Virus record (IMG/VR): IMGVR_UViG_3300034112_000721 | Span: 1-64,000 of that record | Source of the DNA: a virus | DNA length: 64,000 bases | Direction: 5' to 3' (one strand) | Shown here: piece after piece, positions 35,741-53,600 of the stretch | Layout: each line of letters starts with the position of its first letter | Numbering within the stretch: the first letter of the stretch is position 1 | Made by a program: the position numbers and the translations under genes | Notes under the pieces: model-generated | The model's input: only the letters and a program-made list of their open reading frames with translations | Databases searched by the model: none | What the model was told of the DNA's origin: nothing

Positions 35741-38700
35741 ACTGCATTGTTTGTTCGTTCATTTTTTTTATTGCTGGCCAACCTTGTTGCAAGGCTTGAA
35801 ATCTTATATTAGTCAAATTATTTCCAGCTGTAATAGTATTATCATTAGTTGTTGCAATTCTAAAGTCTCCAATTGTAGGATCCCAAACAGGATACTTTGT
35901 TGTTATACTATAATCTCCCATACCTAAAGGATTTTTTTGAATCTCAAATTGATATCTACCATCCAATGGATCAGTATAAGTGTATGTTTGATTAGGACTA
36001 TTATCTACTCTTAATGCTAAAGGATCTTTAAAATTTTCTTGATATAAAGGATTTTGTAAATAATCACTATTTGCAATTATACTTATTCCATTTTTTAAAG
36101 CATCTTCATATTCAGTTTTATTTAATAGATTATTATTATCATCAGCATTTGTTGATTTGAATTTTTTCAAAAACTCTGCAGATGGTTTTATAATAATTGC
36201 ACCAAGATTTGCATTACCACCAGCAACTACAGCAGACGATAATTTAAACATATCTGTTTTACTAGATGGTCTTGACATTTCCCTTTGTATCTCATTTATT
36301 ATAGCTTTATATTTGCTTCCACCAACTGCATTCTCATAATCAGCTTCACTACGGCCTGTAACAGATATTCTAGCCTGTCCCATAAAATCTGAAAAATCCA
36401 ATTTATTTACATCACTCATTACACCATTCCAATAATATCTTCCTTTACTACTGTAAGGGTTTACCATGATTGATCTAATACCCATTGCTGCCATACCAGT
36501 ACCTGGGTCAGTGGTTTTTTCATAACCAACCGGAGGAGTTTTTATTAATCTTGAATCACTCCAAACCTCTTTGTCTGCAGTAGATACAAGATTCTCATAT
36601 AACGCTTTTAAATTTTCTTCTGCACTTGGTCCTTCAAGGAATGAATTAATTATTCCTGCAACTCCACCAGTAAATGCACCAAATACAGCACCAGGAGCGG
36701 CACCTACTCCAAAAAAAGCAGATCCAGCTGCTGCTCCTCCCGCAGCTCCTGCTGCTGCCCATGTTCCTGTACTAAGTGCTGCATCACCAAGAGCCTCCAA
36801 AAAACTTCTTTGGTCTCCAATTTCTATACCGGTTCTTTTAACATTTGCTGCAAAAGTTTCTGCAGACACTTGGTTACCATTATCATCATATAATAATTGA
36901 GTAATGGCTTTATCTGCAATACCTCTTCTTGCAAGTTCTGTTTCAGTTACATTTGCATAATCTTTTTTCCATTTAGTATTAGCTTTTACATAATCAATAT
37001 AATCTGTAAATTCTAAATTACTTTCTTGTAAAGCTGTCATGTTATTTTTAATAACAGAAAGATTACCATTGTTTTTTAAGAATGTATTAAAATTGGAATT
37101 AATCTTTTCTAAACCATCTGCTCCTGTTAAACTTGCAAAACCAGCTAGATTACCTTTATGTTTTTTAAGAAAATCTGAAAGAGATTCAACTGGTGCATTT
37201 GGTGTACTGAGTATTTGACCAGCTTGTTTCTCTGTCATCTGACCACTCTTTATTAATTGCTGAAGTGTATTTGTAACATTATTTATATATGGAGTAAAAT
37301 ACTGGTTAGCTTTATTTCTAAACATTTTATTAGAAAGCTCATATTGATTTGTTTCATCAGTAGAAACCTCTGAATCACTTTCTAAAAATGTAAAATCTTG
37401 ATCTTCAAATGGTACATACTCACCCTTTTCATTAAACATTCCTCTACCAAGTTTAACATTCTCTTTATCCACCATCATCTTCCTCTCAGCAGCTACTTTA
37501 ATACTTAGTATTTCTAAATCATTTTTATGTCTTTCAGCAATCTCACTTAAATTATACTGATGTTTATCAGCCATAATTGCATATGGATTTGCATCCATAT
37601 CCACTTTAGAATTTCTATAAGCGTATATATGTGCTGCTTGGTTTAAATCTCTAGCAAGTAATGAAGCAGAAACACCATTATCAACCATATATCTTAGTGT
37701 CTCAATATCCTCATATGGATTTTTAAAACCAGTTGAAGTAGTTGCAGTACTTGACTGACCACTATTCATTTTATCTAACTGCTTCTTTGATTGAGATAAT
37801 ACCTCATCATTAATAGATTTGTTTTCTATATAAGCATCTAATTGTTGCTGAAGCTGTGGATCTTTATTACCATTATCAATTTGCTTTTGAAGATCTTTGA
37901 TCTTATTATCATATGCTACAGAAGATTCATTTAACTGCTTATATCTTGACTCACTTGATCTCTTAAGAGTATTAAAGTTTTTCTCAAGATAATCCATCTC
38001 TGCAGCATTCCTATCTCCATTAAATTCACCCGCCCTGCTATATGCATAATCTTTTCTATTTACATATGCTTGCGTGCTATATATAGCTTGTACCTGTGGA
38101 TCATTACCCAGATTTGCTTCAAATAAATGTTGTAATGGTTCTTCAAGAATTTGACCATTGGTTCTTTTAATAACCCATCTTCCATCCTGACTCATCTCAA
38201 CACTTTCTATATTTCCAAATTCCTTTGCAAGTTCAAGTGCTTTATCTTGAACATTTACATAAGGTGTATATAGTACATTTTGAAAATTAAGTGCTTTTTC
38301 TGCACTAGCATCTTTAAATTCTCCCCTTCTATATTCAAGTTCTTTTAAACCGGTATCCCAAAACATTGCTCTATCTTTTTCATTTGCAGAGCCCTGGAAA
38401 CCTTGTGCTTTAAGAACTTGCATATTAAAGTTCTTAGTCCAAGCCATATCTTTCATTAAACCTTTATCTTCATAGAATGGCTTAAATACTTGTGTTGCTT
38501 GACTTACATTCTGCTGTAATGAAAGATCTAATCCCGCTAATCTACCTACATTAAAGTTAATTTGATCTACTAAATAATCTTTCTTCTGAATATTATCATC
38601 TCTTGTAAGATCTGCATAAAAATATTGACCATATACTCTATTTAGTGATTTCCAGTTACTATCATACTGATTCTGTTTATTTTGTATTAGATTAGAATAC

Positions 38701-38765
38701 AGATTAAGATCAGGTTGATAGGGCTGAAGTTGTGGTATAAAAGTGGCTGATGTAAAAGTTGCCAT
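35727..38765 (-). CDS. Internal virion (ejection) protein with glycine-zipper membrane segment (1012 aa)
   Basis: N-terminal PQLQPYQPD. Hydrophobic WAAAGAAGGAAAGSAFFGVGAAPGAVFGAFTGGVAGII. Position in the cargo cluster. Confidence 0.65.
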   Translation of the reverse strand: MATFTSATFIPQLQPYQPDLNLYSNLIQNKQNQYDSNWKSLNRVYGQYFYADLTRDDNIQKKDYLVDQINFNVGRLAGLDLSLQQNVSQATQVFKPFYEDKGLMKDMAWTKNFNMQVLKAQGFQGSANEKDRAMFWDTGLKELEYRRGEFKDASAEKALNFQNVLYTPYVNVQDKALELAKEFGNIESVEMSQDGRWVIKRTNGQILEEPLQHLFEANLGNDPQVQAIYSTQAYVNRKDYAYSRAGEFNGDRNAAEMDYLEKNFNTLKRSSESRYKQLNESSVAYDNKIKDLQKQIDNGNKDPQLQQQLDAYIENKSINDEVLSQSKKQLDKMNSGQSSTATTSTGFKNPYEDIETLRYMVDNGVSASLLARDLNQAAHIYAYRNSKVDMDANPYAIMADKHQYNLSEIAERHKNDLEILSIKVAAERKMMVDKENVKLGRGMFNEKGEYVPFEDQDFTFLESDSEVSTDETNQYELSNKMFRNKANQYFTPYINNVTNTLQQLIKSGQMTEKQAGQILSTPNAPVESLSDFLKKHKGNLAGFASLTGADGLEKINSNFNTFLKNNGNLSVIKNNMTALQESNLEFTDYIDYVKANTKWKKDYANVTETELARRGIADKAITQLLYDDNGNQVSAETFAANVKRTGIEIGDQRSFLEALGDAALSTGTWAAAGAAGGAAAGSAFFGVGAAPGAVFGAFTGGVAGIINSFLEGPSAEENLKALYENLVSTADKEVWSDSRLIKTPPVGYEKTTDPGTGMAAMGIRSIMVNPYSSKGRYYWNGVMSDVNKLDFSDFMGQARISVTGRSEADYENAVGGSKYKAIINEIQREMSRPSSKTDMFKLSSAVVAGGNANLGAIIIKPSAEFLKKFKSTNADDNNNLLNKTEYEDALKNGISIIANSDYLQNPLYQENFKDPLALRVDNSPNQTYTYTDPLDGRYQFEIQKNPLGMGDYSITTKYPVWDPTIGDFRIATTNDNTITAGNNLTNIRFQALQQGWPAIKKMNEQTMQYGSR

Positions 38766-38787: not shown

Positions 38788-38830
38788 AATATATTAAAAT
38801 ATTTTAAGTTTAATAAACCTTAAAAGTTTA
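38788..38830 (-). promoter_or_regulatory. Putative phage late promoter plus palindromic operator (copy 1)
   Basis: AATATATTAAAATAT at 38788 and TAAACCT-TAA-AAGTTTA at 38814, with the same spacing as the copy at 45679. Confidence 0.6.
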
Positions 38831-41359
38831 TTCATAGTAATAAAAAGGATAAACTGTGTCTCCATAAACCATCCCACCTACCTGATATACAGGTCCTCCA
38901 TATCTACTATATCTAGTTTTATATACTAATTCTTGCATATCATCTGGAAGACCACTTGCTTTTAATTGCATTGCATATTCTAAAGCATCTTCAGGTTTTT
39001 CAGGCTCTAATGGTTTACCCTGCTTAAAGATTTGCACTCCAGTTACAGGATCAATTGCATATTGCTCACTTTGAATATTGTATATATCAGCAGCATTTTT
39101 AATACCCTGATTCATCATTGCTGTTTTTAATGCATCTTTTGCATTTAATTCACCTCTATAGAAGTTTTCAGCAGCTCCAACTTTATCAATATACTGATTA
39201 AAAATATTTGCTCTATTTGCAGCTTCACTCATATCAGCTTGATAATTTAATTGTCTTTCCTGATTTTCTATACCAGTATTACCAGCCTGTGTTTGAAGTA
39301 TAGGATTTTGTATTGCACTAATAAGATCACCTTCTAATGAAGCAGCTATAGCTTGTTTTGCTGTAGATGGTGTTGCTGTTTTCCCTATTAAATCTAAATT
39401 TTTGGCAGCTGCCGCTTGTGCTGCTTGAACAGGGGCAAGCCACTCTTGTTTCTGCAAACTTATTTCAGGTGCTCTAGGAACCATTGCTGTAGGGTACTCA
39501 ATTCCAGTTCTTGTTCTCATTGCAGTGGCAAGATTTAACTTATCTTGAGTTGTCCATTCTGGCCAGTATGTTCCTCCCGGAGCCTGTACATCTGGAAACT
39601 GAACTTGTGGTTTTTGTTCCTGTTCACACTCACACTTACCATCTTTTAATGGAACTTCTTTTTCCACACCAGTTATAGGATCAGGACAAAAACATTTCTT
39701 TATTGTAGTTGGTGGAGCAAATTTAACTCTCTGTCCTAATGTAGTATTTGTATTAAATTGATCAATACCTGATACCTGTCCTTTTTTTCCTGCTATTTCT
39801 TCATCACCAACACCAACTTGGAACTGACCATATGGTTTATATTTTTCAGTTCCTAATAAATTTCTATATGCAATATATGCCGCTTGACCTTTAAAGCCAC
39901 TAGAAAAATCTAAATCACCAAGTCCATCAGGATTTTTTTGTATTAATTTATTTGCTGCAGCATTAGTACCAGTACTTCCTGATACATTTTGTTCTGTTTT
40001 AGAAGCATCTAAACCAAAAGCTTCTAGCCTTGCATTTCTTTCTTCTTGCGCTAGTAATTGATCTACAACAGATTTTTTATCAAGCTTTCTTAATTCCGGT
40101 GCATAACCGGTATATAGTTTTTCTCTTTGACTCTTAGTATAGTTTTCTTTATTTTCTATATCTTTTTGATATTGTGCATACAAGTCATTTTGAAAATCAA
40201 CATTTTCTTCTATTGCTCTTTTAGTATTTATAAAATCAATGTATGCTTGTTTCTTACCATTCCATTTTTTCTTAATTACCTCTAAGTCTTCTTTTGTTAA
40301 ATCTGCTTCAGTAATTTGTCCTCCTCCTTCAAATGTATTTAACTTACTTGTACTTCCACCATTTTGCATAATCAATGGCATATTAGTACCACCAATTATA
40401 ATGCCTTCTCTGGCCATAAATGGACCGCTTCCTAGCATTCTTTCTCTTCTTCCTAAATAGTTATTAGGATTACCTCCACCAAGAGAAATTCCATATTGTG
40501 CAAATGGCATTTCATAACCACCAACCGTCATACCATACATAGCCATAGGTGCTTCTTGCATTTGTTCTGGAGACATTTGTTGTGCACTCATCATCTGTTC
40601 TTCCATAGATGGTTGTGCAATTGGTTCTCCAGATGGCATTTGCTGTGGCATTGGTTGCTCTTCCATTTGTTCTTCTACCATTTCTTCTTGTGGCATACCT
40701 TCTTGCGGCATCATTTGTTCTTCTTCACTGATACCTTCTGGCATTAAATCTTCTTCTGTAATTCCATTAGCTTCCATGTATGGCTTAGCAATAACAGGTA
40801 TACCTTGAGGAAAACCTTTTTTAGATTCTTGTGCAAGTGCTAATGCACCAAGTTTCATGACATAATTTTTAATCATCATTTCTGCAGTTTTCTTTTCCAT
40901 TTTATTGGAGTCAGGATCTTGCAAAAGTTTTCTATATTTATTTATGTCATAAGTCTTAGATAATTCTGCTGGCGTATATCCACCTTTTTTAGGTGTTTTA
41001 CCAAACATCTTTAAGATTTCAGGATCAGTTATTTTCATTGACTGTGTGTCACTAAAAATAAATGTGTCATCTGGTAAGTTCATAGGTACTCCACCAGATG
41101 AATGTCTTGGACCTTTTATATTATAGAATGATGGAAATGTAGAACCATCTATATCTCCCACTAATGTTTCTCCACCCTCTGCTTCTATGTTAGCTTCTTC
41201 TCTAGGAACAGCTCCCATAGAATTTCTAACTCTTAAGCTTGGTTTACCAATGTATGCATTATAATCTGCACCACCAAAAGCAGGTACATCATTAGCTAAA
41301 GAACCTTGAATTTGATATCCAGTTCTTGCTCTAGGAAGTTTTTTTAGTTTTTTATCCAT
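38828..41359 (-). CDS. crAss-like cargo/internal virion protein (843 aa)
   Basis: N-terminal ANIEAEGGETL...GPRHSSGGV...FIFSD motif, recalled from crAss-like cargo proteins. M/Q/E/P low-complexity tract and multiple xxxGG motifs. Confidence 0.65.
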   Translation of the reverse strand: MDKKLKKLPRARTGYQIQGSLANDVPAFGGADYNAYIGKPSLRVRNSMGAVPREEANIEAEGGETLVGDIDGSTFPSFYNIKGPRHSSGGVPMNLPDDTFIFSDTQSMKITDPEILKMFGKTPKKGGYTPAELSKTYDINKYRKLLQDPDSNKMEKKTAEMMIKNYVMKLGALALAQESKKGFPQGIPVIAKPYMEANGITEEDLMPEGISEEEQMMPQEGMPQEEMVEEQMEEQPMPQQMPSGEPIAQPSMEEQMMSAQQMSPEQMQEAPMAMYGMTVGGYEMPFAQYGISLGGGNPNNYLGRRERMLGSGPFMAREGIIIGGTNMPLIMQNGGSTSKLNTFEGGGQITEADLTKEDLEVIKKKWNGKKQAYIDFINTKRAIEENVDFQNDLYAQYQKDIENKENYTKSQREKLYTGYAPELRKLDKKSVVDQLLAQEERNARLEAFGLDASKTEQNVSGSTGTNAAANKLIQKNPDGLGDLDFSSGFKGQAAYIAYRNLLGTEKYKPYGQFQVGVGDEEIAGKKGQVSGIDQFNTNTTLGQRVKFAPPTTIKKCFCPDPITGVEKEVPLKDGKCECEQEQKPQVQFPDVQAPGGTYWPEWTTQDKLNLATAMRTRTGIEYPTAMVPRAPEISLQKQEWLAPVQAAQAAAAKNLDLIGKTATPSTAKQAIAASLEGDLISAIQNPILQTQAGNTGIENQERQLNYQADMSEAANRANIFNQYIDKVGAAENFYRGELNAKDALKTAMMNQGIKNAADIYNIQSEQYAIDPVTGVQIFKQGKPLEPEKPEDALEYAMQLKASGLPDDMQELVYKTRYSRYGGPVYQVGGMVYGDTVYPFYYYE

Positions 41360-41360
41360 C

Positions 41361-44300
41361 TTATTTTTTATTTAAACCAGCTAGTTTTATTAAATTTTGA
41401 AAGTCACTAATATCTATTTTGTGACCACCAGTTGGTGCTTTGGTTTTTTTATTCTTAATAGATCCACCTTTTTTACCTATTACACCTTCAAATCCTTGTT
41501 GATAAACATCTCTACCTGTTCTAGGATCATATCCTCCAGGATTATAATCTTGATAGGCTTTTAATTTTTCACCTCTTGCTATTTCAGTCATTTGAGGAAT
41601 ATATTTATTTACTCTATCATTTCTATAATCTCTAATATCAGCAAGAGTAGCTCCGGCATCCATCAATCCCCTTGAAATATTATCATAGTTAATGGTACCA
41701 GTTCTATTTTCTTTTAATTTTAATTGAGCTTGTGTTGGTAGTTGTTCCATTGTACGCGGACCTTGACCTGCATACATTGGATCATAACATGGACTATTAG
41801 GATCTTTTACTTCATCTTCTGTACAAGGACCTATTTTACCTTGACCAATACCACCTGGTTGCACTATGCTATTTGTAGGATATGATACTGGAGAAAAATT
41901 TATTCCTAGATCAGCCCTTACAAGACCACCATTAGCACGGCTCTGAGCAAAAGGATTTTTCTTTTCTATTTGTCTTGCTTTTTCTGCATATGTAGACATT
42001 ATGTTTTCATAAATTCTTCTTTCCGCAGCATTTTTTGGCTGACCTGAACCTATATATCTTTTTATCTGTTTATTTCTATCATCGTAAAGACTACTTAAAG
42101 CCTTATCATAAAGTTTTCTTGCCTCATCTTCTGAATAATTTTTTGAATAATCAATTTTTGGATTAAATCTATTCTTTAAATTATATATATCACGAGACCA
42201 GTATGCAGATATAGGATCAAATCTTTCTGAAGCAGGATTATATCTTGGCCCAAAGTTATTTGTTGGTTGTTGATTTCTTCTTACTCCTGCTCTTGCTCCT
42301 GCTCTTACTCCTGTTCCTGTTTGATTTTTAATAATCTGTTTTTGAACTTCAGGTGTTTGTTGAGCAAACCAATCTCTTCCTTCCATTGTATTTAAAATAG
42401 AATTTGGATTATTAATTGCTATGTCACTTGAAGAACTACTAGTTAATGGATCTACACCAAATTTATATTCTGTAGGTTGTTCATAATCTGGATTAAATGG
42501 TATCATGCTTCCATCATATGGATTAGAAGAGAAGCTTGAATTATAAAAGTCTTCATCAGCTACAGGATTGCTACCTGGTTGTTGCATGAAAACATCTCCT
42601 TGATTAAATGATCCATAATTTGGAATACCAGAGCCTGAAGTAAATTGGTTATCCGTAAATCTCTGTAAATCAGAGTTTGGTTGTTGAAAGTAATTTTGTG
42701 CTGGCTGAATATTATTAACAACAGGGTTTCCTGCAGTAACTGATGCATTTTCAGTTTCAGGAATTTCTTGTTCTGATTGTGGTTCTTCAGTTTGTGGAAC
42801 TGATGCAGGTTGATTATTTACAGCTGGAGTATTTTGCTGTGGAGTAACCATTTCTTCCTCATCATAATATTCAGGAGAATCTATATTGATAGGCTCTCCT
42901 GCAGCATTAATTACAGTAAGATTTCCTTTTGTTGCTGTAGTAGGATTATTATAAATATCTGCAGTTCTTTGTGGTGTAATATTGTTTGCTGCAGCAGCTC
43001 TTTGTTGTGCTTGAATTGCGGATGTGCTTGTAGGTGCTCCTACTGTAGGCATAGAAGTTCCAGCACCTGGAGTTGTATTTAATACACTTGTAGGAGCTAT
43101 GTTTACAGGTGTTCCAGGTGTACCAGTAACTAGATCAGCACCTTGAGTACGGGTCATACTTGAAACAGGTGTATAAGGACTTTCTACTTTAAGACTTGAT
43201 GTTGGAGTAGTTGGTTGTTGTGTATATGGTCTATCATCTTCTAAAGGTTTTCCAAATCTAATTCTTTGGATAAGATCATTAGCTCCAAGTCTTAAACCTG
43301 AAAGACCCATCCCTTTATATTTATATCCTCTAGTATCTTGTTGACCAGTTGTTCCTGCAGCTGTACCAGATAGCGCAGGTAAACCTGCAGCTATTTGTCC
43401 TGGAGTAGCATAATCTATAGTTGTAATTCTATCTTTATTAAAACCTAAGTTTCTTTCAAACCAATTACCATCTTGTTTTCTTTCTTTACTATATTTTATA
43501 CCGGTAGGAAGCATTCCAGCTTTGGTAATTGCTGCAGCTGTTGCTGCATATTGCAATGGATCACCTACTGGTGAAAATGTAGAAGCCCCTCTAGTAAATG
43601 GTCTATATAGATTAGCAGCAGTTTGAAACATTCCTCTTCCACCAAAAGATCCTGCATATGGATTACCACCAAATTGAGGATACCCCCACACTGGTTGCCA
43701 AGGTCCAGCAGAACCAAAACCACCAGGATAGTATTGTTGTTGTTGTGTTTGAGTTTGTGTATTATATTTCTTTTGTGTAGCTTCTTCTATTTTCTTTCTT
43801 TCTTCTGCTATTGCTTTATCATACTCTTCTTTAGTAGTAATAGGTTTAAAAGTATTAGATTTATCTACTTCACTGTTACCAGTTCCTTGAAACTTGTATA
43901 AACCACCATCTCTAAAATATGAATCTGTTACATCTTTAGAGTTTGTATAATCTAAGTCAGATTGATTTACTGGTGGTTGCAATATATCTGATAAGAATAC
44001 ATTATCTACTTCTGTACCATATACAAATTTTGTTAGATCAGGTCTATTAGGATCTACAAAACCACCTTGTTGAAACCAAGGAGCTATTCCAGGATTTATA
44101 AATGTAGCTCCTATTTTTAAATAATCCCAAAAATCCAGTCCACCATCTGAACTACTAACTGGTTTAGGAGCTGGTTTAGGAGCGGGTTTTGGTGCCGGTG
44201 TAATACCTGACATATTAACTTTACCAGTACTTGAAGTAACTGGTGCAGGTGGTGTCTTTAATGGAATACCCAATCCTTTTTTTGTTTGGGCAGGCTTTAC

Positions 44301-45659
44301 AGAAGTTTTAGTAGTAGATGGAGCATTTGATTTGTTAGCTGCTTTTGCTGCAGCTTCTGATCCCGTAGCTTTTGCTACTTCTTCTGTAGACTTATTATTT
44401 ACCCCTTGTGCTACTGTTTCAGTAACAAGTCTTCCTGGTGTTACTACTCTAGTGTTTTGATTAACACCATACATTCCAGGAAAAGACATTGATGGAAACA
44501 TGGACATTAACATGAGTGGATTAAACTGTATGTCAGCATTTCTTAAACCACCAAGTAATCCAAAATTATATTTTGCAGAAGTTACTCCTGGAGGAGTAAA
44601 TGGCACACCAAACATTTTTCTATTTGCTCTTGCCATTCTACCACCACCAAATAAACCTGGTCTCCGATTCATATACATATTTCTATACATTTGTTCAGCT
44701 TGTTGTCTATAGAAATTTTCTTGCGCCTGGTTTCTAATAGCTCCAACAAAATTATTATTAGTAATTGTTGGTACAGGTTGTGTAGGATTTGTTTCAGTGC
44801 CTTTTACATTAGCTGTATTTGCATCTTTTGTTTCAGTTCCAGCAGCTGGTGTTTGTTGTCCATCTTGAGCTTTTTTAAGTTGTCTGACCATCTTATTTAC
44901 AAATGATCTTTTATTAGGTATGTTTCCACCAATTGCATATTGATTAGCCATATTGTAATCATCTAAATCTAGTACATCATTAAAATTATCAACTGCACCA
45001 CCTATTTGTTTATATGACCAATTACCTCTAACCTCATTAATATCCATATAATTATCTTGCTCTTCTGGTAATTCTTCTTCCTGATCATCTGCTTCTGCTA
45101 CTTCTTCATCATCTTTAATAGCATTAAATTCTAAATCATTTATTAAATTAGAACCACCAATATTAGAATTATCTTCTCCTGCTAATTCAGCATAATAACT
45201 TGCAGAATTATTATCTGTCTCTTTTTGCTCTGGAGCTTCAGTAATTGTTTCTTCTGTTATTTCAAGTCTTTCATTTTGTTGATCTCTTGCTTCCTTTCCA
45301 AACTGAGAAAATATTCCTTCCACTAATTGATTTACATTGGGAAGTATATTTGCAAGTTGCGGATAAGCTTCCTGATATGGCTCATACTTAGCATATATGG
45401 CTTCTTTTACATCATCACTTCCACCACCTCTAGAAATCATTTCTATAATATCTTTAACTATGATATCTTCAAAATTAACTTGTTGCTGTTGTTGTGGTTG
45501 TGGTTGCATACCTTGCATCTGTTGCATAATACCTGCAGTTACAGGAGTAACTCCAGACTCTGCACCCATCTCTGCTTGTCTTAACCACTTAGCGGTTTTA
45601 TTTATATAGCCTCCTTTACCATAAGGATCTTTATAAACTATTACTTTTCTTTTTGCCAT
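41361..45659 (-). CDS. Low-complexity, largely disordered internal virion protein (1432 aa)
   Basis: Q/P/T/G/N-rich, with PAPK repeats and many xxxGG motifs. Located in the cargo cluster. Confidence 0.6.
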   Translation of the reverse strand: MAKRKVIVYKDPYGKGGYINKTAKWLRQAEMGAESGVTPVTAGIMQQMQGMQPQPQQQQQVNFEDIIVKDIIEMISRGGGSDDVKEAIYAKYEPYQEAYPQLANILPNVNQLVEGIFSQFGKEARDQQNERLEITEETITEAPEQKETDNNSASYYAELAGEDNSNIGGSNLINDLEFNAIKDDEEVAEADDQEEELPEEQDNYMDINEVRGNWSYKQIGGAVDNFNDVLDLDDYNMANQYAIGGNIPNKRSFVNKMVRQLKKAQDGQQTPAAGTETKDANTANVKGTETNPTQPVPTITNNNFVGAIRNQAQENFYRQQAEQMYRNMYMNRRPGLFGGGRMARANRKMFGVPFTPPGVTSAKYNFGLLGGLRNADIQFNPLMLMSMFPSMSFPGMYGVNQNTRVVTPGRLVTETVAQGVNNKSTEEVAKATGSEAAAKAANKSNAPSTTKTSVKPAQTKKGLGIPLKTPPAPVTSSTGKVNMSGITPAPKPAPKPAPKPVSSSDGGLDFWDYLKIGATFINPGIAPWFQQGGFVDPNRPDLTKFVYGTEVDNVFLSDILQPPVNQSDLDYTNSKDVTDSYFRDGGLYKFQGTGNSEVDKSNTFKPITTKEEYDKAIAEERKKIEEATQKKYNTQTQTQQQQYYPGGFGSAGPWQPVWGYPQFGGNPYAGSFGGRGMFQTAANLYRPFTRGASTFSPVGDPLQYAATAAAITKAGMLPTGIKYSKERKQDGNWFERNLGFNKDRITTIDYATPGQIAAGLPALSGTAAGTTGQQDTRGYKYKGMGLSGLRLGANDLIQRIRFGKPLEDDRPYTQQPTTPTSSLKVESPYTPVSSMTRTQGADLVTGTPGTPVNIAPTSVLNTTPGAGTSMPTVGAPTSTSAIQAQQRAAAANNITPQRTADIYNNPTTATKGNLTVINAAGEPINIDSPEYYDEEEMVTPQQNTPAVNNQPASVPQTEEPQSEQEIPETENASVTAGNPVVNNIQPAQNYFQQPNSDLQRFTDNQFTSGSGIPNYGSFNQGDVFMQQPGSNPVADEDFYNSSFSSNPYDGSMIPFNPDYEQPTEYKFGVDPLTSSSSSDIAINNPNSILNTMEGRDWFAQQTPEVQKQIIKNQTGTGVRAGARAGVRRNQQPTNNFGPRYNPASERFDPISAYWSRDIYNLKNRFNPKIDYSKNYSEDEARKLYDKALSSLYDDRNKQIKRYIGSGQPKNAAERRIYENIMSTYAEKARQIEKKNPFAQSRANGGLVRADLGINFSPVSYPTNSIVQPGGIGQGKIGPCTEDEVKDPNSPCYDPMYAGQGPRTMEQLPTQAQLKLKENRTGTINYDNISRGLMDAGATLADIRDYRNDRVNKYIPQMTEIARGEKLKAYQDYNPGGYDPRTGRDVYQQGFEGVIGKKGGSIKNKKTKAPTGGHKIDISDFQNLIKLAGLNKK
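44161..44200 (-). repeat. 12-bp coding tandem repeat (PAPK x3)
   Basis: ggtttaggagct/ggtttaggagcg/ggttttggtgcc units. Confidence 0.7.
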
Positions 45660-45678
45660 TATACACTATATATTACTA

Positions 45679-45721
45679 AATATACTAAAAATAAATTTAA
45701 TTAGTAAACCTATTAAGTTTA
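45679..45721 (-). promoter_or_regulatory. Putative phage late promoter plus palindromic operator (copy 2)
   Basis: AATATACTAAAAATAAAT at 45679-45696 and TAAACCT-ATT-AAGTTTA at 45705-45721. Confidence 0.65.
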
Positions 45722-48700
45722 ATCTATTTCTTCTACTATCCAGCCACCTTTTCTATACTGATTTATTTCTTTATCAGAAAGATCCATTATCATACCCCCA
45801 TCTTGAAACATTCTTGTGTTACCACCAAATCTTTTTTGCTGCATTGCTGCAGCATAAATGTTATTTATATTTTGAAGACTTGGTTCAATTATCTTAGTAA
45901 AAGTTTTTAGTTGTTCAATTCTTGGATCTACTTGTTCTTCTTCTTTTCTTGGTTGCCAATCATCATTTTGCATGTCTTTGATGATTGTTGTTTTTACAAC
46001 TGTTTTTTCACCAGGTGTTCTTGTTGTACTTGATTCAAACCCAGGTATTGATTGATTTGAAGATCCTACAAGTGGTCTACCAGAAAACTTAGATATTCTG
46101 CGCTTAACATCTCCTACTGTATAGTAACCTTTTTTATCTGCATCAAAAGTTTTATTTTGATTATATAAGGCATCTTGATTTATTCCAAATACTTTAATAC
46201 CGCTTCCACTAGCACCTAATACAAAATCATCTGGTTTTCCAACTGCAGCTGGAAGAAATGTATACATATATAAATCACCAATGTCTTTTGCTTTACCCAC
46301 TACTGGTTTATAAAATTTTTCTACATAATCCAATTGTTCAATAGCAGACATATTTTTTAAAGCTTCAATACTTGTACCTAAACCTTTTGCAGTATTTGGC
46401 ATAAACTGAATTAAGCCTGTTGCATTTGTATAAGGATTAACAGCAGCTGGATTTAACCCAGATTCATGATTCATAATACCAATTAAATCTTCTAGTGATA
46501 CTCCAAGATTATTAGCTACTTGTTGTGCTTTTGCTTGGAAGGCAGGATCCAATCCACTCATCTGCATACCAGTTCTTGCCTTTGTTAAACTTGGTGTAGA
46601 AAAATCTTCTACTATATATCCTTGTTTTACAAGTTTATCAATTTCTTTTTCTGTAAGTTCAGATACTATACCATTATCATTTGTTTCAATTAAACCACCA
46701 GATTTATAGTTTGCTCCATCATTAGTACCATAAGCAGCAGCTCCTACTCCAAGTCCTGTTGGTATAATATATGGTAACATGGATTTATATATATTAGGAT
46801 TAGTCATATCCAAAAGTATATTTCCTACTGCTGATTTCATCCTGTTTGAAAAAGGAACTACCATTTCAAAAGCATTTTCATTTATATTAGGATAAAACTC
46901 ATCACCTATTACAATATCTTTATCTAAGTATTGTTTAACTCCTCTATTTTTCATTTTTTCAGAAATATTTCTATGAAAATTTCGAAGTTGAGGATCTGCC
47001 AAATGTGCTCTAGCTGACTTTGGTATAGATGGATCTATAAAACTACTAGCATATAATGGTGATTTTGCGTTTACATATAAATTATATTGATTAACACCAT
47101 AGTCTTTTGAATACTCTAACGGAGTTACGTAAGTTCCTACTCCTTTATCTCCCTTATCTGTTGTGGAACCAAAATGCTCTTCTTTAAATTCCACAAATTT
47201 ATTTGGAGAACCATGCTTTACTGGTAAAACATTACCTTTTGAGTCTCTTAAAATAATAGGAAAAGCTTTTTTAAAATTACTACTTTGTTGAATTACAAAT
47301 TGTTCAGGAGTTCCTTGAAAAGGTGTACCATCAGCATTTTTCATCCATGTACCAGCTTCTTTATTAGCCTTTTCTATATCATTTAATTCTTGAATAACAT
47401 TAGGATTATTATCAAAGTCTTCTTTATATTTAACCCAGTTTCTCCAATCTATTTCTGATTGAAATTTAGAATTAGGAGAACCTGGTAGTTGTTTAGGAAC
47501 ATCTATTTTTTTATATCCCTTTAACCAGTGTTGTTTATAAATAGTAGCTTCATTTGTTGGAATAAATTTTTCTGGATTTGTATAGACAATATCACCCAAA
47601 TCTTTGCCAGATCCAAAATAAGTATTTAACGGAGTAAATCTTGAATCTTTTGCCGCATTAGAAACTTCTGTCATATAAGGACCTGGATACCCTCTATCCC
47701 AAACATGACCAAAATACTTTCTAGTATCAGATGGAACACCCATTGTATAATAAGTTTCAGGATGTACTATTTTAATATCACTACCTTGAGAACTTGGTCT
47801 AAAATATCCACTTTCTAAAGCATCCTTTAAACCAGCTTCATCTCCAATCATTCTATAAGCGGCTTCAGGATTAGGTTTAAATGCCCAAGGGTTATATTTA
47901 TAAGTATTTTTTAAAGGTGTTTTGGTAGTAATAAACTCTCCTAAATTTGAAATAGCCTTCGGTGCTGCACCAAACATATTAATAACTCCAGGAGACCCTA
48001 AAATACCCAATGCATCTAAACCAACATTTCCTACTGCATCTAATATGTTAGAAGTAGTAGGATTATTATATGCTTTTTCTAAACTCTTTCTAGACTCAGA
48101 ATCAGAATCTGCAAGATTAGCTGCACTTTGTGAACCAAAAATTAAACTTGCAATATTAAATGGAGTTACTGTACCTGCAGTAGCTGTTGTTATTCCTTCT
48201 CCAAGTGGTAGAGCTGTATTTAATGCTGGCCAAATAACATTTTTAGCATATTTAGATCCAGATTTTAGAGCATTACCAACAAGACCTGCAGCACCACCAC
48301 TAGGTCCCATAAAGAACATTTCGGGATATACCATTTGTACAGGAGCATCTCCATAGTTATTCCAAGGACCATTACCAGTAACTTGTCTTCCATTATAATA
48401 ATAAGTTTTTGGTTTAACAGGATTATAAGTAGATTTGTATGCCCTTTCAATATCTGATTCTGCACCAAATATATTTTCATTTATCCAATCTCCAAAATCT
48501 TCTAAATAAGTTTGGTTTTTATTTTTATCTTCAATGTTCATAACCCATTGCTTATATTTAGCATCAGCATCAGGATCTTTTAATTCCATTTTATCTCCAT
48601 CTATGTAAATTATTTTGTTTTTTTCTTCATATGGATCTTTTTTTGATTTGAGATCAATTTCTTTTGCGTCTTGAACAAAATCACGTACAGCAAGATTTAC

Positions 48701-50656
48701 CTCTCCAGGTTTAGTTTTAGGTGCACTAGCTAATTTTTCAACTGCAGCAAGACTTTTTGGTTTTGCTGTTGCTCTAGCAGCACTAACATTACTAGAAGGT
48801 TTAGATTTATTTTCTGATTCAGAGATTGCCTTAGTAATATAATTAGCCATATTACCAAGACCACCAGCAGCACCACTAGCAATTAATCTTGAAAGCTCAG
48901 CAGCTTTTTCTTTTTCTTGAAGTTGTTTTATTGGATTACCTCCTTTATCCATTCTAGTTAATGAAGGTATAGAAATGTCTTCTATTATATATCCACCTTT
49001 TCTGTATTCTTCTATTTGATTATCATCAAGTTCAAGTTCAATATAACTAGGTGCTCCAATCATATTTCTTAAAAAACTCTGTGCATCAGAATCTGCAATT
49101 GAAGGATTTTCAGTTGCTATATTTCTACCATAAACATTTGTAATTGGCCTATAACCAATTTTTCTATCTTCATCTACAGCATGCTGAAATGTTTCATGTG
49201 CAGGTGATTTTAAATATTCTCCTGTATTTTGATTAATACTATATGCATGATAATAACCATCACTCTCTTTGGGTTGATCATAATTAAATTTTTCTGGTCT
49301 TCCCTCAGAATCCCAATAACCCCTTATATCATATGTAGCATCATCTGTTTGAAGATTTTCAGGAAGTGTAGCATAAAATTTTTGAAATTCTATTTCTTCT
49401 TCTGGTGACAGTTTAGTAATACCACCATTTTGTTTCCTTATAAGATTACCTATAGAATGTCCATAGCTTGCTTCTGGTAATTCTACACCATCTTTAAATA
49501 TTTGTCCTGCACTTCCTAATTTATTAATAACAGATTGTTTATTATCTATATGTCTATTTATTCCCAGTTCTTTTATTTTAGCTATCTTAGCTTTATCTGA
49601 TCCTGTTGCAAATATTCTATCTTCAGATATTCCCGCAGCTCTTGCTCTTTCTATCATATCTGGTGTTACTTCAGCTCTAGCAGATATTATATATTTTTCA
49701 TTAGGCATGGATTGAGCCATTTGTAAACCTCTATCTGTGCTAAGTGTATCATCAAAGTCAAATGAAATTATTTCACCTCCTATTTTTTTATATTTTAACT
49801 TTTTAAGATTTTCTAAAATGCTTTCTATTCTTTGTTCTTCTTGTCTCGCCTCTCCTTCTATTGTAGATGGATTCATATACATTCTTTCCTGTGCTAAATT
49901 TAGTATTTTCTCTTCTGGCATATCAGGATTTTCTTGCATAATTTGATCAAAAGCTTGATCAAATTCAACACCTCTTCTATCATAATAAGCACCTATTGCT
50001 TCATCTGATGCAACATATGGATTAGGCCTAAGACCTACTGAACCGTATGTACTCATTTTACCATCCATATTTTGTTTATCATGAAAAAGTTCATGCGCCA
50101 ACCACCAAGGATTATTTATATTTTCTATTGGACTATTTGGATTATATGTTATAGTTCTAAATGCAGAATTATAACCTAATTGATGTTCAGGATTATTAGG
50201 ATCATAATTTTTTATTGGAACATATGTTATACCACCATCTTGAAAATATGGAGAATTAGGATCAAAGATTTTATTCTTTACAGATTTTGATTTTTTAAAT
50301 AACGGGTTTTTTGTAAATAATATATTCCTAGCCATTAAGCTTTTGGAATATTTTTTAGGATACTTTTTACTACCACCTTTCTTAGCTTGTGGTATTTCAT
50401 AAACCATGTCTCCTTCAAACTGATACTCATTACCTGGAGTCATGTATTGTGCATTACCTAAATTATCTATACCCAATAAGTCATCTTCTACTCCTTTCAT
50501 GGTTATCTTTCCAGTAGGTGTAGGTACTGCAGTAGGAAGACCTGGGTAATCCCATTGCCCTCTTTCAGAAACAATAAATCCTTGAGTAAATCTTTTTAAC
50601 TCATTTGGACCACCGGGTAAACCAGCTTTTTCATATTTCTTAAAAGACTTCTTCAT
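45719..50656 (-). CDS. Multi-enzyme internal virion polyprotein (1645 aa): zincin, HAD-like, ART-like and SLT-type lytic transglycosylase domains
   Basis: HELFH...E (50081-50095). ISFDFDDTL...ISAR...K...HIDN HAD motifs. HGSP...F...GTYVT ART-like region. HESGLNP...ATGLIQFMP...EQLDYV transglycosylase near the C-terminus. Confidence 0.75.
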   Translation of the reverse strand: MKKSFKKYEKAGLPGGPNELKRFTQGFIVSERGQWDYPGLPTAVPTPTGKITMKGVEDDLLGIDNLGNAQYMTPGNEYQFEGDMVYEIPQAKKGGSKKYPKKYSKSLMARNILFTKNPLFKKSKSVKNKIFDPNSPYFQDGGITYVPIKNYDPNNPEHQLGYNSAFRTITYNPNSPIENINNPWWLAHELFHDKQNMDGKMSTYGSVGLRPNPYVASDEAIGAYYDRRGVEFDQAFDQIMQENPDMPEEKILNLAQERMYMNPSTIEGEARQEEQRIESILENLKKLKYKKIGGEIISFDFDDTLSTDRGLQMAQSMPNEKYIISARAEVTPDMIERARAAGISEDRIFATGSDKAKIAKIKELGINRHIDNKQSVINKLGSAGQIFKDGVELPEASYGHSIGNLIRKQNGGITKLSPEEEIEFQKFYATLPENLQTDDATYDIRGYWDSEGRPEKFNYDQPKESDGYYHAYSINQNTGEYLKSPAHETFQHAVDEDRKIGYRPITNVYGRNIATENPSIADSDAQSFLRNMIGAPSYIELELDDNQIEEYRKGGYIIEDISIPSLTRMDKGGNPIKQLQEKEKAAELSRLIASGAAGGLGNMANYITKAISESENKSKPSSNVSAARATAKPKSLAAVEKLASAPKTKPGEVNLAVRDFVQDAKEIDLKSKKDPYEEKNKIIYIDGDKMELKDPDADAKYKQWVMNIEDKNKNQTYLEDFGDWINENIFGAESDIERAYKSTYNPVKPKTYYYNGRQVTGNGPWNNYGDAPVQMVYPEMFFMGPSGGAAGLVGNALKSGSKYAKNVIWPALNTALPLGEGITTATAGTVTPFNIASLIFGSQSAANLADSDSESRKSLEKAYNNPTTSNILDAVGNVGLDALGILGSPGVINMFGAAPKAISNLGEFITTKTPLKNTYKYNPWAFKPNPEAAYRMIGDEAGLKDALESGYFRPSSQGSDIKIVHPETYYTMGVPSDTRKYFGHVWDRGYPGPYMTEVSNAAKDSRFTPLNTYFGSGKDLGDIVYTNPEKFIPTNEATIYKQHWLKGYKKIDVPKQLPGSPNSKFQSEIDWRNWVKYKEDFDNNPNVIQELNDIEKANKEAGTWMKNADGTPFQGTPEQFVIQQSSNFKKAFPIILRDSKGNVLPVKHGSPNKFVEFKEEHFGSTTDKGDKGVGTYVTPLEYSKDYGVNQYNLYVNAKSPLYASSFIDPSIPKSARAHLADPQLRNFHRNISEKMKNRGVKQYLDKDIVIGDEFYPNINENAFEMVVPFSNRMKSAVGNILLDMTNPNIYKSMLPYIIPTGLGVGAAAYGTNDGANYKSGGLIETNDNGIVSELTEKEIDKLVKQGYIVEDFSTPSLTKARTGMQMSGLDPAFQAKAQQVANNLGVSLEDLIGIMNHESGLNPAAVNPYTNATGLIQFMPNTAKGLGTSIEALKNMSAIEQLDYVEKFYKPVVGKAKDIGDLYMYTFLPAAVGKPDDFVLGASGSGIKVFGINQDALYNQNKTFDADKKGYYTVGDVKRRISKFSGRPLVGSSNQSIPGFESSTTRTPGEKTVVKTTIIKDMQNDDWQPRKEEEQVDPRIEQLKTFTKIIEPSLQNINNIYAAAMQQKRFGGNTRMFQDGGMIMDLSDKEINQYRKGGWIVEEID

Positions 50657-53600
50657 TATCTTATTGACATTTCATTTTTACTATTTACAACTTTTAATAT
50701 AAAGTTGATATCTCTTTCTTGTTCTGTAGCAAGTTTAGATAAAAATAAATAATTTAAGTAATGTCTAAACTTCTTTCTTTGAGTATCTAACTTAGCATAA
50801 TTTAAGTTTGCATTATTCAAAGTTTTAATATAACCATTTGGTTCTGTATTCCAAATAAATTGTTCAGAATAATTACCAAGAAGTTGTGTAGTTCCAGGAA
50901 CAAGAGGTCCTGTTGGAGGGTAATCTGACCCAATTGGAAATTCTCCTCTATCTTTTGTAATATCCCAATACTGATTAAACCTATACTTATTTTCTTCTTT
51001 TGAAAATAATATATCAAATGAAGATAAGTTGGATTGATTTAATTTAGGATATTGTAATGAAAGAGTAATATTATTTTTTGGGAATATGTTTAAATTAAGA
51101 TATCCAGATACTTGCTCTGTGTTAGATATAACTGCTTGACTAAAGTTTGCATCAAGAACATGAAACTGATCTACACAGTTAAATTGTGAATATCTATAAC
51201 ACTCTAAGGTATATTCTATTGATCTTACAATACTTGGAGCAGATCCTGTATTTATTGGATACTCTATTTCAAAAGGATATTGTGTACCATAAAAATTACA
51301 GAAGTCATCACATACATCATTATGTCTCCAGATTGTATTACCTTTTACAGTAAACAATGTTTCTTTAGATGAAAATACAAGATCTGGATGCCAATCATGA
51401 TAACTAATAAATACTTGTAATTTAGGGTCATAACTTACAGTCCATGATGCATCAACAAAAACATTTGGGTGCCCTAATGGATAATTTACTCCAAGATAAT
51501 TAAACTTATTTGTTTCTGGATTATAAGATACTTTACCTATATCCTTTCTTAACTGATAATCTTTCTTAGTAAAGTATAGTATAGATGATCTTGTATCATA
51601 TCCTGCTTGAACACCAATACCAGCTACTGGATTATCTTGATGTGGATAATCTGGAAAATCTTCTGTTAGCTTATATGGTAAAAATAAAGAAAACCACCAC
51701 TTCAATCCATTTTGTGAAATTTCTTTTATACCCTCACCATATGCAAAAAGTTTACCCTGATTCATTGATGCATAATATAATCCAGCTGGTGAGTATATTA
51801 CAGATCTTATATTTTGAGATGAACCATATTCAAATGGTGCATCAGCATTTACTGCAGACTGTGGAGGATTACTAAATAAACCACCATCTCCAATAGTTAC
51901 TTTTTTACCAGATAAAGTCTGTAATGTATCTATACCTTGATAGAACAAAGGTCCTGTAGTTGGGAATGTAAAGATCATACCTGTCATACCAACAGGTTTT
52001 ACCGTAGTAATTTTATCATTAAACTGTACATAGTTTAATGGTAAATAGATCAACCAATTATTATCATAGGATTGATCATCTTGGTACAATGAGTATAACG
52101 CTCTATTTGGATAATATGTAAAACATAATTCTGCAACTTGAGGATCATAATTTGCACCTTGTGTTGATCCGGCAGAAAGATACTGTGTAAAAAACTTAGT
52201 AACACTTAATGAATAATCATAGTTATAAAAGTTACCCTTAGTAATTACTTCTGGATTCATATCAAACAGCTGTCTTAAATCTGTATATTGATATGGTATA
52301 TATGGTTGTTGTGATTGTAAAGTTCCTTGTGATCTAAAGTCTACAAGTACATTACTCTCTACAAAGAAATCTCTTACACCAGAATTAGCTAAATACATGT
52401 ATGAATCCTTAACAGATAAAAATCCTGGATAGTTTCCTTCCGTATCATTTTGTCTATCATAATTATCATTATCTAAATTATAATATCCTTTTGGCATTGG
52501 ACCAGTACCAAATGTTGGCTGAGGAGTTAGTAAAGATATTATATCTGCAATTGTTGTTGCAATATTACCACCAGCAGCAATTGGATTTTCATCTTTACTG
52601 TATGGTGCAGTATTCATCCAATACCTTGCTGTAGGTATATTATTATATAATGCATAGTTCCATATAGTTCCATCAGGTAAATTATATAACCAGTTGTAAA
52701 AGAAAAGCATTGTGTTCTTTTCTGTAAATCTGTTTATATAAGTATCTCCTCCAAATATAATTTCTGATGTTGGAAGAACTTTATGAAATACTTGTCCATT
52801 CAACGGGCAGTTGCCAGATGTTGGTTGAGAAATTATATTATTAGGATCAAATTTTTGTTCACACGTTGTTGCAACAACTTGTTTAATACTATCAATTCTA
52901 CCATATTGATTTTGTACATTATATTTTAATCCAACATAATGACTTGCTATATTTCCTAAAAATTGTTTAAATAATGATTCATTTTTAAAACTCATATCAA
53001 AGCTTGGAACATCAGTTGCTTTACCAAGATTAATTAATGAGTTATCTTCTTGAAAACCAATTTGCTGTGTTGATCCAACATATGTACCAACTAACTGCGG
53101 TCCTATTGTTGGAGCAATGGTAGGTGATGTGTATGTTGTATTTGGAGCAGAAGTTCTAATAAAGACTGTCTTAGGTCTAGAAAGATTATTTATTGTAAAT
53201 CTTTGAAAATTACCAAATCCATTTAAATAATCTGGAACCTCTTGATTTCTATCACTAAGATAGAACCCGTTTTCAATTTTAAATCTTTTTAAGAAATTAG
53301 TATTAGGTGCAACAAATCTTGCATAGAATCCATGTGCTAATGATTGTAAAGCATATTGTCTAAATGGTAAAAATGCTTGAATAATTCTTAGTGTTGTATT
53401 GAACCCCTCAGTAAAATAATATGGTAACTGCACACCAATATTTATTGCGCTTGTTGCAAAAACACCAAGCCCTAAATTATTTAAAACAGTTGCTGTATTA
53501 TAATCTGTTATAAGTGTTGTTGGTGGATATAGTCCAATATTTGCATATGATTGTGCCGTTGTTTCAAAAATCTCTTCAAGCGTTAAAGATGCCGGATTAC

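Follow-up and report, generated by a model that had tools for sequence, protein, structure and literature searches.

What do the short glycine motifs that punctuate three adjacent large proteins of a crAss-like phage do? The stretch of DNA analysed here, below called the window, comprises positions 1 to 64,000 (64,000 nt) of the IMG/VR virus record IMGVR_UViG_3300034112_000721, a complete genome of 112,531 bp with direct terminal repeats, which by its sequence is that of an uncultured crAss-like phage. Three open reading frames (ORFs) are concerned: P0001 (1645 aa, 45719–50656), located directly downstream of the muzzle gene (PF25731), P0002 (1432 aa, 41361–45659), and P0003 (843 aa, 38828–41359), by synteny the positional counterpart of crassvirus cargo protein 1. 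These genes and all of their features located below lie on the minus strand. Their position makes it most likely that the three products are cargo packed into the particle and injected. The initial annotation of the region collected pentapeptides of the forms xxxGG and xAxxG from these proteins as one recurrent tag, and read them as maturation-protease cleavage sites or capsid-targeting tags that turn the genes into polyproteins of separately delivered effectors. We found that the motif is real and conserved, that its copies fall on exchange points and in unstructured linkers, and that it is almost restricted to the cargo interval and to a group of small basic proteins. On the evidence, the peptides are more likely to be hinge or docking handles than sites of protease cutting.

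All 29 of the 29 pentapeptides were located in the proteins to which they had been assigned. The tight form [FYWM][QRK]xGG occurs 9 times in P0001–P0003 compared to 0.6 expected, a count reached in 0 of 2000 shuffles. GG dipeptides number 47 compared to 30 expected from shuffles (P = 0.001); the excess stems from P0002 (20 observed, 11.5 expected) and P0003, while P0001 has 13 with 11.5 expected. The generic AxxG is not enriched (27 observed, 26.5 expected), whereas the specific form [KRFMT]A[QRK]xG is found 5 times with 1.1 expected (P = 0.004). The enrichment over shuffled sequences that had been proposed is thus borne out for the tight motif, and the loose forms xxxGG and xAxxG are uninformative when taken alone. 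Enrichment against the rest of the proteome is also present: [FYWM][QRKA]xGG has 10 copies in the 3,920 aa of P0001–P0003 and 2 in the other 30,424 aa, with 8 further copies in a cluster of small Lys-rich proteins near the capsid gene. Three divergent relatives, L008, L009 and L011, have the tight motif only in proteins of the syntenic interval from the muzzle gene to cargo protein 2 (C2). The motif definitions used in these tests are post hoc, and the observation is solid because it is replicated in relatives and the motifs are positionally conserved. The motifs are non-random and conserved.

They are not copies of a single tag. The pentapeptides are parts of a composite seam that consists of an acidic handle, a basic N-terminal leader with PKA[QR]xG, and isolated φxxGGφ seams (φ, hydrophobic) in low-complexity stretches. 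The notion of one recurrent tag holds to the extent that the xAxxG and xxxGG forms interchange, as at the KAQDG seam of P0002 (residues 263–267, 44859–44873), which aligns with KKAQEG, KKAQKG and KKQMGG in orthologues.

The acidic handle is about 28 aa long. Its logo, from 153 non-identical contexts, reads [KQ]xGG-φxxEL-[TDS][DE]xEIxxY[RK]K(G 0.76 / Q 0.15)G-Y[IV][VI]E[ED][IL][DS], in which L, E, I, Y, G, Y and E hardly vary; 15% of contexts have Q in place of the first inner Gly. P0001 belongs to a family of 210 mosaic homologues, and from 120 of these we derived a 19-aa handle core with the consensus DDDEIEEYRKGGYIVEEID, present in 223 copies in 112 of 123 proteins. Among the listed pentapeptides, YRKGG lies inside the handle, FQDGG and YKSGG ahead of it, and MDKGG and KARTG behind it. 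Internal handles are followed in 96 of 106 cases by GG (60), KAxxG (34) or both (2) at fixed offsets, often via VPSLT. A 38-column handle profile searched against 50% identity clusters of 1.84 billion proteins matched 751 cluster representatives at E ≤ 0.001, of which 216 reach E ≤ 1e-10. Most of the matched proteins contain 2–4 copies, and in 116 of 139 sampled bearers (83%) the handle is the C-terminus of the protein. The mean net charge of the handle is −5.4 per 24 aa, compared to a mean of +4.4 for the first 25 aa of proteins of the family. Three handle segments searched against NCBIfam gave no match at E ≤ 10, and a reading of the handle helix as UBA, SAP or HeH-like was dropped, being without profile support.

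Structure prediction gives the handle a strand, a short helix, a Gly turn and a further strand. The helix has a predicted local distance difference test score (pLDDT) of 55–73 in AlphaFold2 (AF2) models, in line with a peptide that perhaps folds when it binds. When 13 divergent handles were aligned, just one Gly per pair was invariant or nearly so (RSLGY, IKDGY, KQGY, NIGDE), which fits a turn glycine better than a site for a GG-specific protease.

How the handle relates to the basic leader is apparent from relatives in which the genes are divided differently. In L008, L009 and L011 the region corresponding to P0001 forms two or three separate genes. The pieces have the handle at their end (for example ...GYIVEEIK or ...GYTLEMVK), and those after a split begin with a basic leader such as MAKYKITGLPKAQKG, MAKYRITSTPDDSFKKGG or MKKKVRIYKAEDGKG. 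The leader takes the forms M-x-K-K-V-R-I-Y-K...GxGG and/or ...PKA[QR]xG. In the window it is represented by MAKRKVIVYKDPYGKGG at the start of P0002 (residues 1–17, 45609–45659), of which orthologues keep KVRIYKxxxGxGG, and by MDKKLKKLPRARTG at the start of P0003 (residues 1–14, 41318–41359), where P9, A11, G14, Y15 and Q16 are invariant in 7 orthologues. Since the split relatives cap their pieces with handle and leader, the internal seams resemble ends that have been fused. The N-terminus of P0003 (..KLPRARTGYQIQG) carries the same PxxxKA[RQ]xG signature that is found behind internal handles of P0001 (TPSLTKARTGMQ), and an internal seam would accordingly be a C-terminal handle joined to the leader signature of the next unit.

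Genes of this interval may also be joined. At L009:8096-12523 and L010:8102-12523 there is a single gene of about 1475 aa with a P0002-like start (MEKRRVRIYKAEDGG...) and a P0003-like part (match to residues 19–287), so that the P0002 and P0003 cargo genes appear from the sequence to be fused in these two loci. Fission and fusion run both ways in the cargo interval.

P0001 consists of a conserved N-terminal head domain, payload domains and three handle modules. We modelled it with AF2 as residues 1–1130 and 1100–1645, using multiple sequence alignments of 49 and 42 rows that were imperfect, as the full-length homologues are mosaic. The confident domains are 25–91, 143–289, about 303–364 (with DxDxT, HAD-like) and 1369–1529. 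The suggestion that the motifs fall at domain boundaries of P0001 proved correct, in that AKKGG, FQDGG, KKIGG, KQNGG, MDKGG and KARTG all lie in linkers with pLDDT < 50 between confident domains. Breakpoints of BLAST matches to mosaic homologues also fall on the motifs, with 21 ends at residue 142 (FQDGG), 18 ends at 572/573 (MDKGG), 10 starts at 407–409 (KQNGG) and 5 starts at 289 (KKIGG). Of 68 unique breakpoints, 13 are within 5 aa of a motif compared to 6.8% by chance (P = 6e-4, the high-scoring segment pairs (HSPs) not being independent).

Read from the N-terminus, the protein begins with the beta-rich head domain (residues 25–91, 50384–50584), which contains GQWxYPG, has pLDDT 87–93 and is covered by HSPs in 60–100 of 120 homologues. 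Most proteins with a handle have this domain as their constant N-terminal part, among them many short ones with a single payload. It ends at the AKKGG seam (91–95, 50372–50386), where G94 and G95 are at least 90% conserved in alignment A1 and pLDDT is below 50 at 92–101. The FQDGG seam (138–142, 50231–50245; pLDDT < 50 at 136–141) precedes an HExxH (zincin-like) domain (143–289, 49790–50230) with the motifs HELFH and EGEA and pLDDT 80–94, and the 21 HSP ends at residue 142 are exactly at the second G of this seam. The KKIGG seam (290–294, 49775–49789; pLDDT < 50 at 288–302) stands ahead of the HAD-like domain, and the KQNGG seam (408–412, 49421–49435) is within a stretch of pLDDT < 50 at 365–414. 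Handle module 1 (536–573, 48938–49051; hidden Markov model (HMM) match 544–562) has YRKGG inside and IPSLT..MDKGG behind, and its residues L543, I548, Y551, G554, G555, Y556 and E559 are at least 90% conserved.

The second half of P0001 contains an ART-PolyVal-like payload (1138–1279, 46820–47245; PF18760, 28.9 bits with a cut-off of 31.2) of low AF2 confidence. It is followed by YKSGG, handle module 2 in a KQGY variant and TPSLTKARTG (1317–1363, 46568–46708; HMM match 1335–1353), where a helix at 1336–1344 with pLDDT of about 56 gives way to a linker of pLDDT < 50 that reaches as far as the lytic transglycosylase (SLT) domain. The latter (1369–1529, 46070–46552) matches PF01464 with E = 1.2e-8 and PDB entry 9udh with E = 5.6e-27, and has pLDDT 82–95. 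KRFGG, FQDGG and handle module 3 make up the C-terminus (1608–1645, 45722–45835; HMM match 1627–1645, helix 1628–1636 with pLDDT 68–73). A Foldseek search of the 1130-residue model against the PDB gave no match at E ≤ 0.001, with weak receiver or KdsC-like and cupin-like rows, and that of the head domain gave weak cupin-like rows; the HAD and zincin labels rest for this reason on sequence motifs and on the compactness of the AF2 models.

Cassettes between the seams differ among homologues. In P0004 the stretch with the ART-like domain is missing and the sequence joins at an xSGG seam ahead of handle 2, and in P0011 and P0013 residues 413–540 are missing and KQ[ND]GG is joined straight to the handle. 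Other homologues swap in VanY, SET, amidase or LysM domains. P0001 carries several unrelated domains of effector or enzyme type on a single chain, as do the polyvalent proteins of Iyer et al. 2017 (PMC5512222). Its SLT, ART-PolyVal-like, HExxH and HAD-like domains follow one another with linkers between them, its gene belongs to a phage virion module, and its domain architecture is strongly mosaic. Of the PolyVal signature domains, ART-PolyVal is present in the homologues P0074 and P0030 in addition to the near match in P0001, and MPTase-PolyVal (PF18818) has no match in the genome. In contrast, that family was described without conserved seam, handle or leader peptides, and the text of PMC5512222 does not mention linkers, glycine or crAss.

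P0002, a low-complexity protein of the cargo interval with a basic leader and isolated seams, has no Pfam, PHROG, NCBIfam or PDB match, and a PDB sequence search with P0003 found nothing. Both proteins are without a handle in the phage of the window, whereas the P0002 orthologues in L008 and L011 end with one. Their seams are conserved across orthologues of 37–90% identity in such a way that the glycines stay and the flanks drift. In P0002 this applies to FQQGG (529–533), with the variants LQYGG, FAAGG, QQYGG and HEEGG, and to FRDGG (582–586), with YFRDGG varying to YFMHGG, YFKKHGG and YFQRGG (both seams within 43902–44075; GG kept in most of nine aligned sequences). In RANGG-LV-RADLG (1241–1252, 41904–41939) the GG and the next hydrophobic residue are conserved and RADLG is limited to closer orthologues. 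GKKGG near the C-terminus (1395–1399, 41463–41477) is conserved in closer orthologues, its place being taken by the handle in L008 and L011. P0003 has a Gly-rich variable stretch with FAQYG, MAREG, MQNGG and FEGGG (286–347, 40319–40504), in which A[KR][EQ]G-II and IMxxGG are semi-conserved, and a C-terminal tail SRYGG-PV-YQVGG-MVYG (818–843, 38831–38908) with the pattern RYGGPVxQxGGMVYG across orthologues, where G821, G822, G828, G829 and Y832 are invariant in 7 orthologues. KQIGG, YAIGG, FAQYG and RADLG are conserved in close relatives only or lie within indels. Residues 556–578 of P0003 (39626–39694) also contain a CxC...CxC arrangement (KKCFCPD...DGKCECEQ) with C556, C558, C576 and C578 invariant in 7 orthologues, possibly a small metal-binding knuckle, cysteines being scarce in the rest of this cargo protein.

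These results lead us to propose that the pentapeptides are the glycine turns, with their flanks, of conserved end-and-joint peptides of cargo proteins, and that the chain works uncut, with the seams acting as hinges or docking elements. We would give this explanation about even chances. A cargo unit would consist of a basic N-terminal leader, a payload and usually an acidic C-terminal handle, together with isolated φ-x-x-G-G-φ seams that would divide sub-domains from one another and recur through low-complexity stretches. End-to-end fusion and exchange of such units would have given rise to large polyvalent proteins such as P0001. The glycines would form turns between a short hydrophobic strand, the helix and a further strand. 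The constant head domain, the leader and the C-terminal handle would be parts for loading and ejection and the variable middle the payload. It is possible that short docked segments fasten the uncut chain to parts of the virion, whether the portal, the tail barrel, the muzzle or other cargo, with contacts to other cargo made by acidic handle to basic leader, and that at ejection the domains are threaded out one by one. The capsid-targeting part of the initial annotation fits this picture to some degree: a virion-loading role is plausible for a handle that ends 83% of the sampled bearers and for a basic leader that starts proteins, but separately delivered, protease-released effectors find no support.

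The model for this hinge-and-docking function, which we infer by analogy, is PhicrAss001, which encodes at the same position the cargo proteins C1 (gp45) and C2 (gp46) and virion RNA polymerase subunits (Bayfield et al. 2023, PMC10172136; PF25725, PF25712). Segments of C1 are docked in the tail barrel (214–245) and on the portal (425–552, modelled as one domain), and PMC10172136 proposes a single C1 chain that bridges tail barrel and portal and does not mention proteolysis. The genes of the three window proteins, putative cargo by position, likewise lie between the muzzle gene and giant genes of the RNA polymerase type. In gp45, too, aromatic-GG sites flank the two resolved segments. Aromatic residues close ahead of GG number 10 compared to 3.8 expected, with one site ending at 210, just before 214–245, one at 426–428, at the start of the 425–552 domain, and one at 562–563, just after it. 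The P0001 homologue P0030 (2263 aa) carries a crAss_CARG1 (PF25725) domain at 1257–1379 together with ART-PolyVal, an architecture which indicates that the C1 domain that binds the portal forms, in some phages, a cassette within this polyvalent chain. Unlike the window proteins' family, gp45 shows no acidic handle, and the window phage has three large proteins compared to one.

Direct similarity between the two sets of proteins was also sought. P0001–P0003 have no significant sequence or profile similarity to gp45 or gp46, PF25725 has no match in P0001–P0003 at E ≤ 0.01 nor in 7 P0003 orthologues at E ≤ 5, and hhalign of P0003 with gp45 gave a probability of 0.4%. P0003 resembles PF25725 clusters in an Atlas feature comparison with a score of 0.91, which is a lead only. 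Identification of P0003 and the adjacent 1012-aa protein as homologues of gp45 and gp46 is unproven, given that there is a weak colinear BLASTP match (E = 0.008 for a single pair), nothing by hhalign and neither crAss_CARG1 nor crAss_CARGO2 by Pfam.

Several points weigh against the uncut hinge-and-docking explanation. The docking partner of the handle is hypothetical, and the AF2 confidence for the handle is only moderate. Homology to PhicrAss001 C1 is not demonstrated, so that the docking precedent is one by analogy. The protease survey described below covered named families and part of the ORFs, and the two giant proteins of 4143 and 2870 aa, which are without Pfam matches, could hide a peptidase. 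Short terminal peptides ending in GG do resemble removable targeting sequences.

The last two points bear on the alternative that some or all seams are processing sites, cut behind GG or AxxG, either within the procapsid or once the protein has been injected, by the in-cis HExxH domain or by an unrecognised phage or host peptidase, which would free effectors and remove terminal targeting peptides. We regard this as unlikely, although it accommodates a number of observations: motifs flank every confident domain of P0001, the leaders of 14–17 aa that end in G(G) look like removable capsid-targeting sequences, autoprocessing of polyvalent proteins by zincins was predicted by Iyer et al. 2017 (PMC5512222), and double-glycine leaders share the i, i+4, i+5, i+8 spacing of the handle helix. 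On the other hand, no positive evidence of maturation cleavage or polyprotein processing emerged. Searches for the named families Peptidase_C39, S78, S77, ClpP, C48 and MPTase-PolyVal gave no match in the complete genome (PF03420, PF04586, PF00574 and PF02902 at E ≤ 1; PF03412 absent), and Pfam searches of about 26 ORFs, including the structural genes and the giants, found no peptidase family; host peptidases are outside the reach of this survey. The sole peptidase-like domain found is the HExxH domain at residues 143–289 of P0001, which has no match to MPTase-PolyVal, is matched in 45 of 120 homologues, and has no HExxH counterpart among the cargo genes of L008 and L011, where handle and seams are retained. 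The zincin-like domain is not general among these proteins.

The places where the chain is naturally divided argue in the same direction. Where genes are split, the ends come after ...YIVEEID and before M..K..PKAxxG and none at GG, and in divergent copies the GG is reduced to one invariant Gly. Several motifs are close to a terminus, 8 aa away at the C-terminal end or no more than 17 aa at the N-terminal end, and a cut 8 aa from the C-terminus would free nothing useful. In PhicrAss001 the modelled C1 domain continues through F426-G427-G428.

The double-glycine leaders cleaved by C39 peptidase domains of PCAT/AMS transporters have L-12, E-8, L-7 and V-4 followed by GG (Bobeica et al. 2019, PMC6363468). 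The handle shares with them an amphipathic helix of the pattern hydrophobic-xxx-E-hydrophobic-xx-hydrophobic that is followed by GG. It differs in its spacing of L(−13), E(−9), I(−8) and Y(−5), that is, one residue farther from GG, and in being C-terminal or internal rather than an N-terminal leader. Residues behind its GG (Y-I-V-E-E) are conserved as strongly as those ahead, and Q, D, L or N frequently replaces its first Gly; the genome, as noted, has no detected C39 peptidase.

Virion core polyproteins of adenovirus and African swine fever virus offer a second comparison. These are matured at Gly-Gly-X sites by a dedicated clan CE protease, the adenovirus protease and pS273R, respectively. 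The likeness is that of internal virion proteins with a recurring xxGG at unit borders. In contrast, no Ulp1-like C48 family was found here (adenain itself was not searched), and the hydrophobic residue of the seam is one place farther from GG than in the adenovirus consensus.

A particular version of the processing idea takes the seams as a processing and delivery code, where handle and leader load the units and the chain is cut at the Gly seams after injection into separate effectors by a host double-glycine-type peptidase or an unrecognised phage enzyme. We consider it distinctly doubtful; if true, cutting at seams after injection would be a polyprotein strategy new for tailed phages.

A different possibility is that the seams are passive linkers, flexible joints that tolerate insertion or deletion of domains and mark functional recombination points, with no specific role in binding or cleavage. 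The exact coincidence of mosaic-homologue breakpoints with seams, the cassette differences among close relatives (P0004, P0011 and P0013) and the location of seams within low-confidence linkers are all consistent with it. However, passive joints would have no need for an aromatic residue or Met three places ahead of the glycines, for a hydrophobic residue after them, or for a 28-aa handle with near-invariant residues, nor would they need to cap most C-termini. The three handle copies within the P0001 gene have 61–70% nucleotide identity and share no exact run longer than 11 nt, a weak DNA homology for recombination, and a DNA-level recombination hot spot at the handles is thus unsupported within the gene. 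This explanation, too, seems quite unlikely.

The seams recall the demarcation motifs of polymorphic toxins, VENN in CdiA and DPxGL in Rhs. A general reference on such toxins is Zhang et al. 2012 (PMC3482391). In both cases a short conserved peptide stands at the border of constant and exchangeable parts and coincides with recombination breakpoints. The seams differ from those motifs in sequence, sit in virion cargo instead of secreted toxins, and occur several per protein and at both ends.

It is improbable, in our view, that the motifs act as stickers, with aromatic-x-x-GG and MKKGG repeats driving multivalent self-association into a condensate or inner body that co-packages cargo in the capsid. 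The motif is common to P0002, which also has FG-like runs (PQFGG, GSFGG), and to the small basic proteins encoded beside the capsid gene, and the PhicrAss001 capsid stores about 5 MDa of unresolved cargo (PMC10172136). However, both the self-association and the presence of the small proteins in virions are conjectural, and an ordered handle at fixed offsets looks specific rather than generic.

These small proteins are encoded by eight Lys/Arg-rich ORFs of 66–164 aa with 21–28% K+R, at C1:66966-69775 of the same genome, outside the window (L013:3166-5975), in a run between capsid-side genes and the ring 3/4 gene. Three of the eight carry MKKGG, MKAGG, MAKGG, MATGG or MKTGG, and motifs number 8 compared to 0.44 expected in shuffles (the test set including an adjacent 341-aa ORF). 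Their sequences suggest that they may be further packaged proteins sharing the tag.

Finally, chance is already refuted by the shuffles, the replication in divergent relatives, the positional conservation and the 751 handle-profile matches, even though Gly-rich disordered proteins yield many GG dipeptides, the loose motif definitions are uninformative and four of the listed pentapeptides are limited to close relatives or indels.

Crassviruses are among the most abundant phages and carry megadaltons of protein cargo. The protein class to which P0001–P0003 belong is known, as polyvalent proteins (PMC5512222) and crassvirus cargo (PMC10172136), and the code of seam, handle and leader is apparently undescribed in these two papers and in the other literature searched. 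Common to hundreds of clusters of cargo proteins, it represents a concrete and mutable element for testing how the procapsid recruits cargo, what retains this cargo on the portal or tail, and whether it exits as one thread or in pieces. The code explains the shuffling of effector domains in these phages, among them wall-degrading enzymes, ADP-ribosyltransferase-like domains and SET, and it would aid the annotation of cargo genes without Pfam matches in uncultured crass-like genomes.

The surroundings of the three genes are those of a crassvirus virion module. The muzzle protein is encoded at 50656–56109 (Pfam PF25731) and tail ring proteins 1 and 2 at 56109–57820 (Pfam), and beyond the ring genes the same genome has the crassvirus major capsid protein, a P22-like portal and the ring 3/4 protein. 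Past the muzzle the order is P0001, P0002, P0003, the 1012-aa protein and the giants of 2870 and 4143 aa, and synteny from the muzzle to the giants is kept in 11 IMG/VR loci. No cultured relative was found among 50,697 phage records by megablast of the region or by tblastn of P0001, a handle segment and P0003; the tblastn matches of P0001 were limited to the SLT domain.

The 1012-aa protein (35727–38765) occupies the C2 position. It has no crAss_CARGO2 match in Pfam, and its Gly/Ala-rich residues 654–704 give a weak match to DUF6861 (E = 3.1e-5, below the cut-off). The giants (14695–35740) correspond by position to the crassvirus virion RNA polymerase proteins; they have zero Pfam matches at E ≤ 0.01, and the seam motif is nearly absent from them. 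The virion structural module also includes a ferritin-like or rubrerythrin-like protein (PF00210, E = 3.5e-26), encoded at C1:65626-66255 of the same genome (L013:1826-2455).

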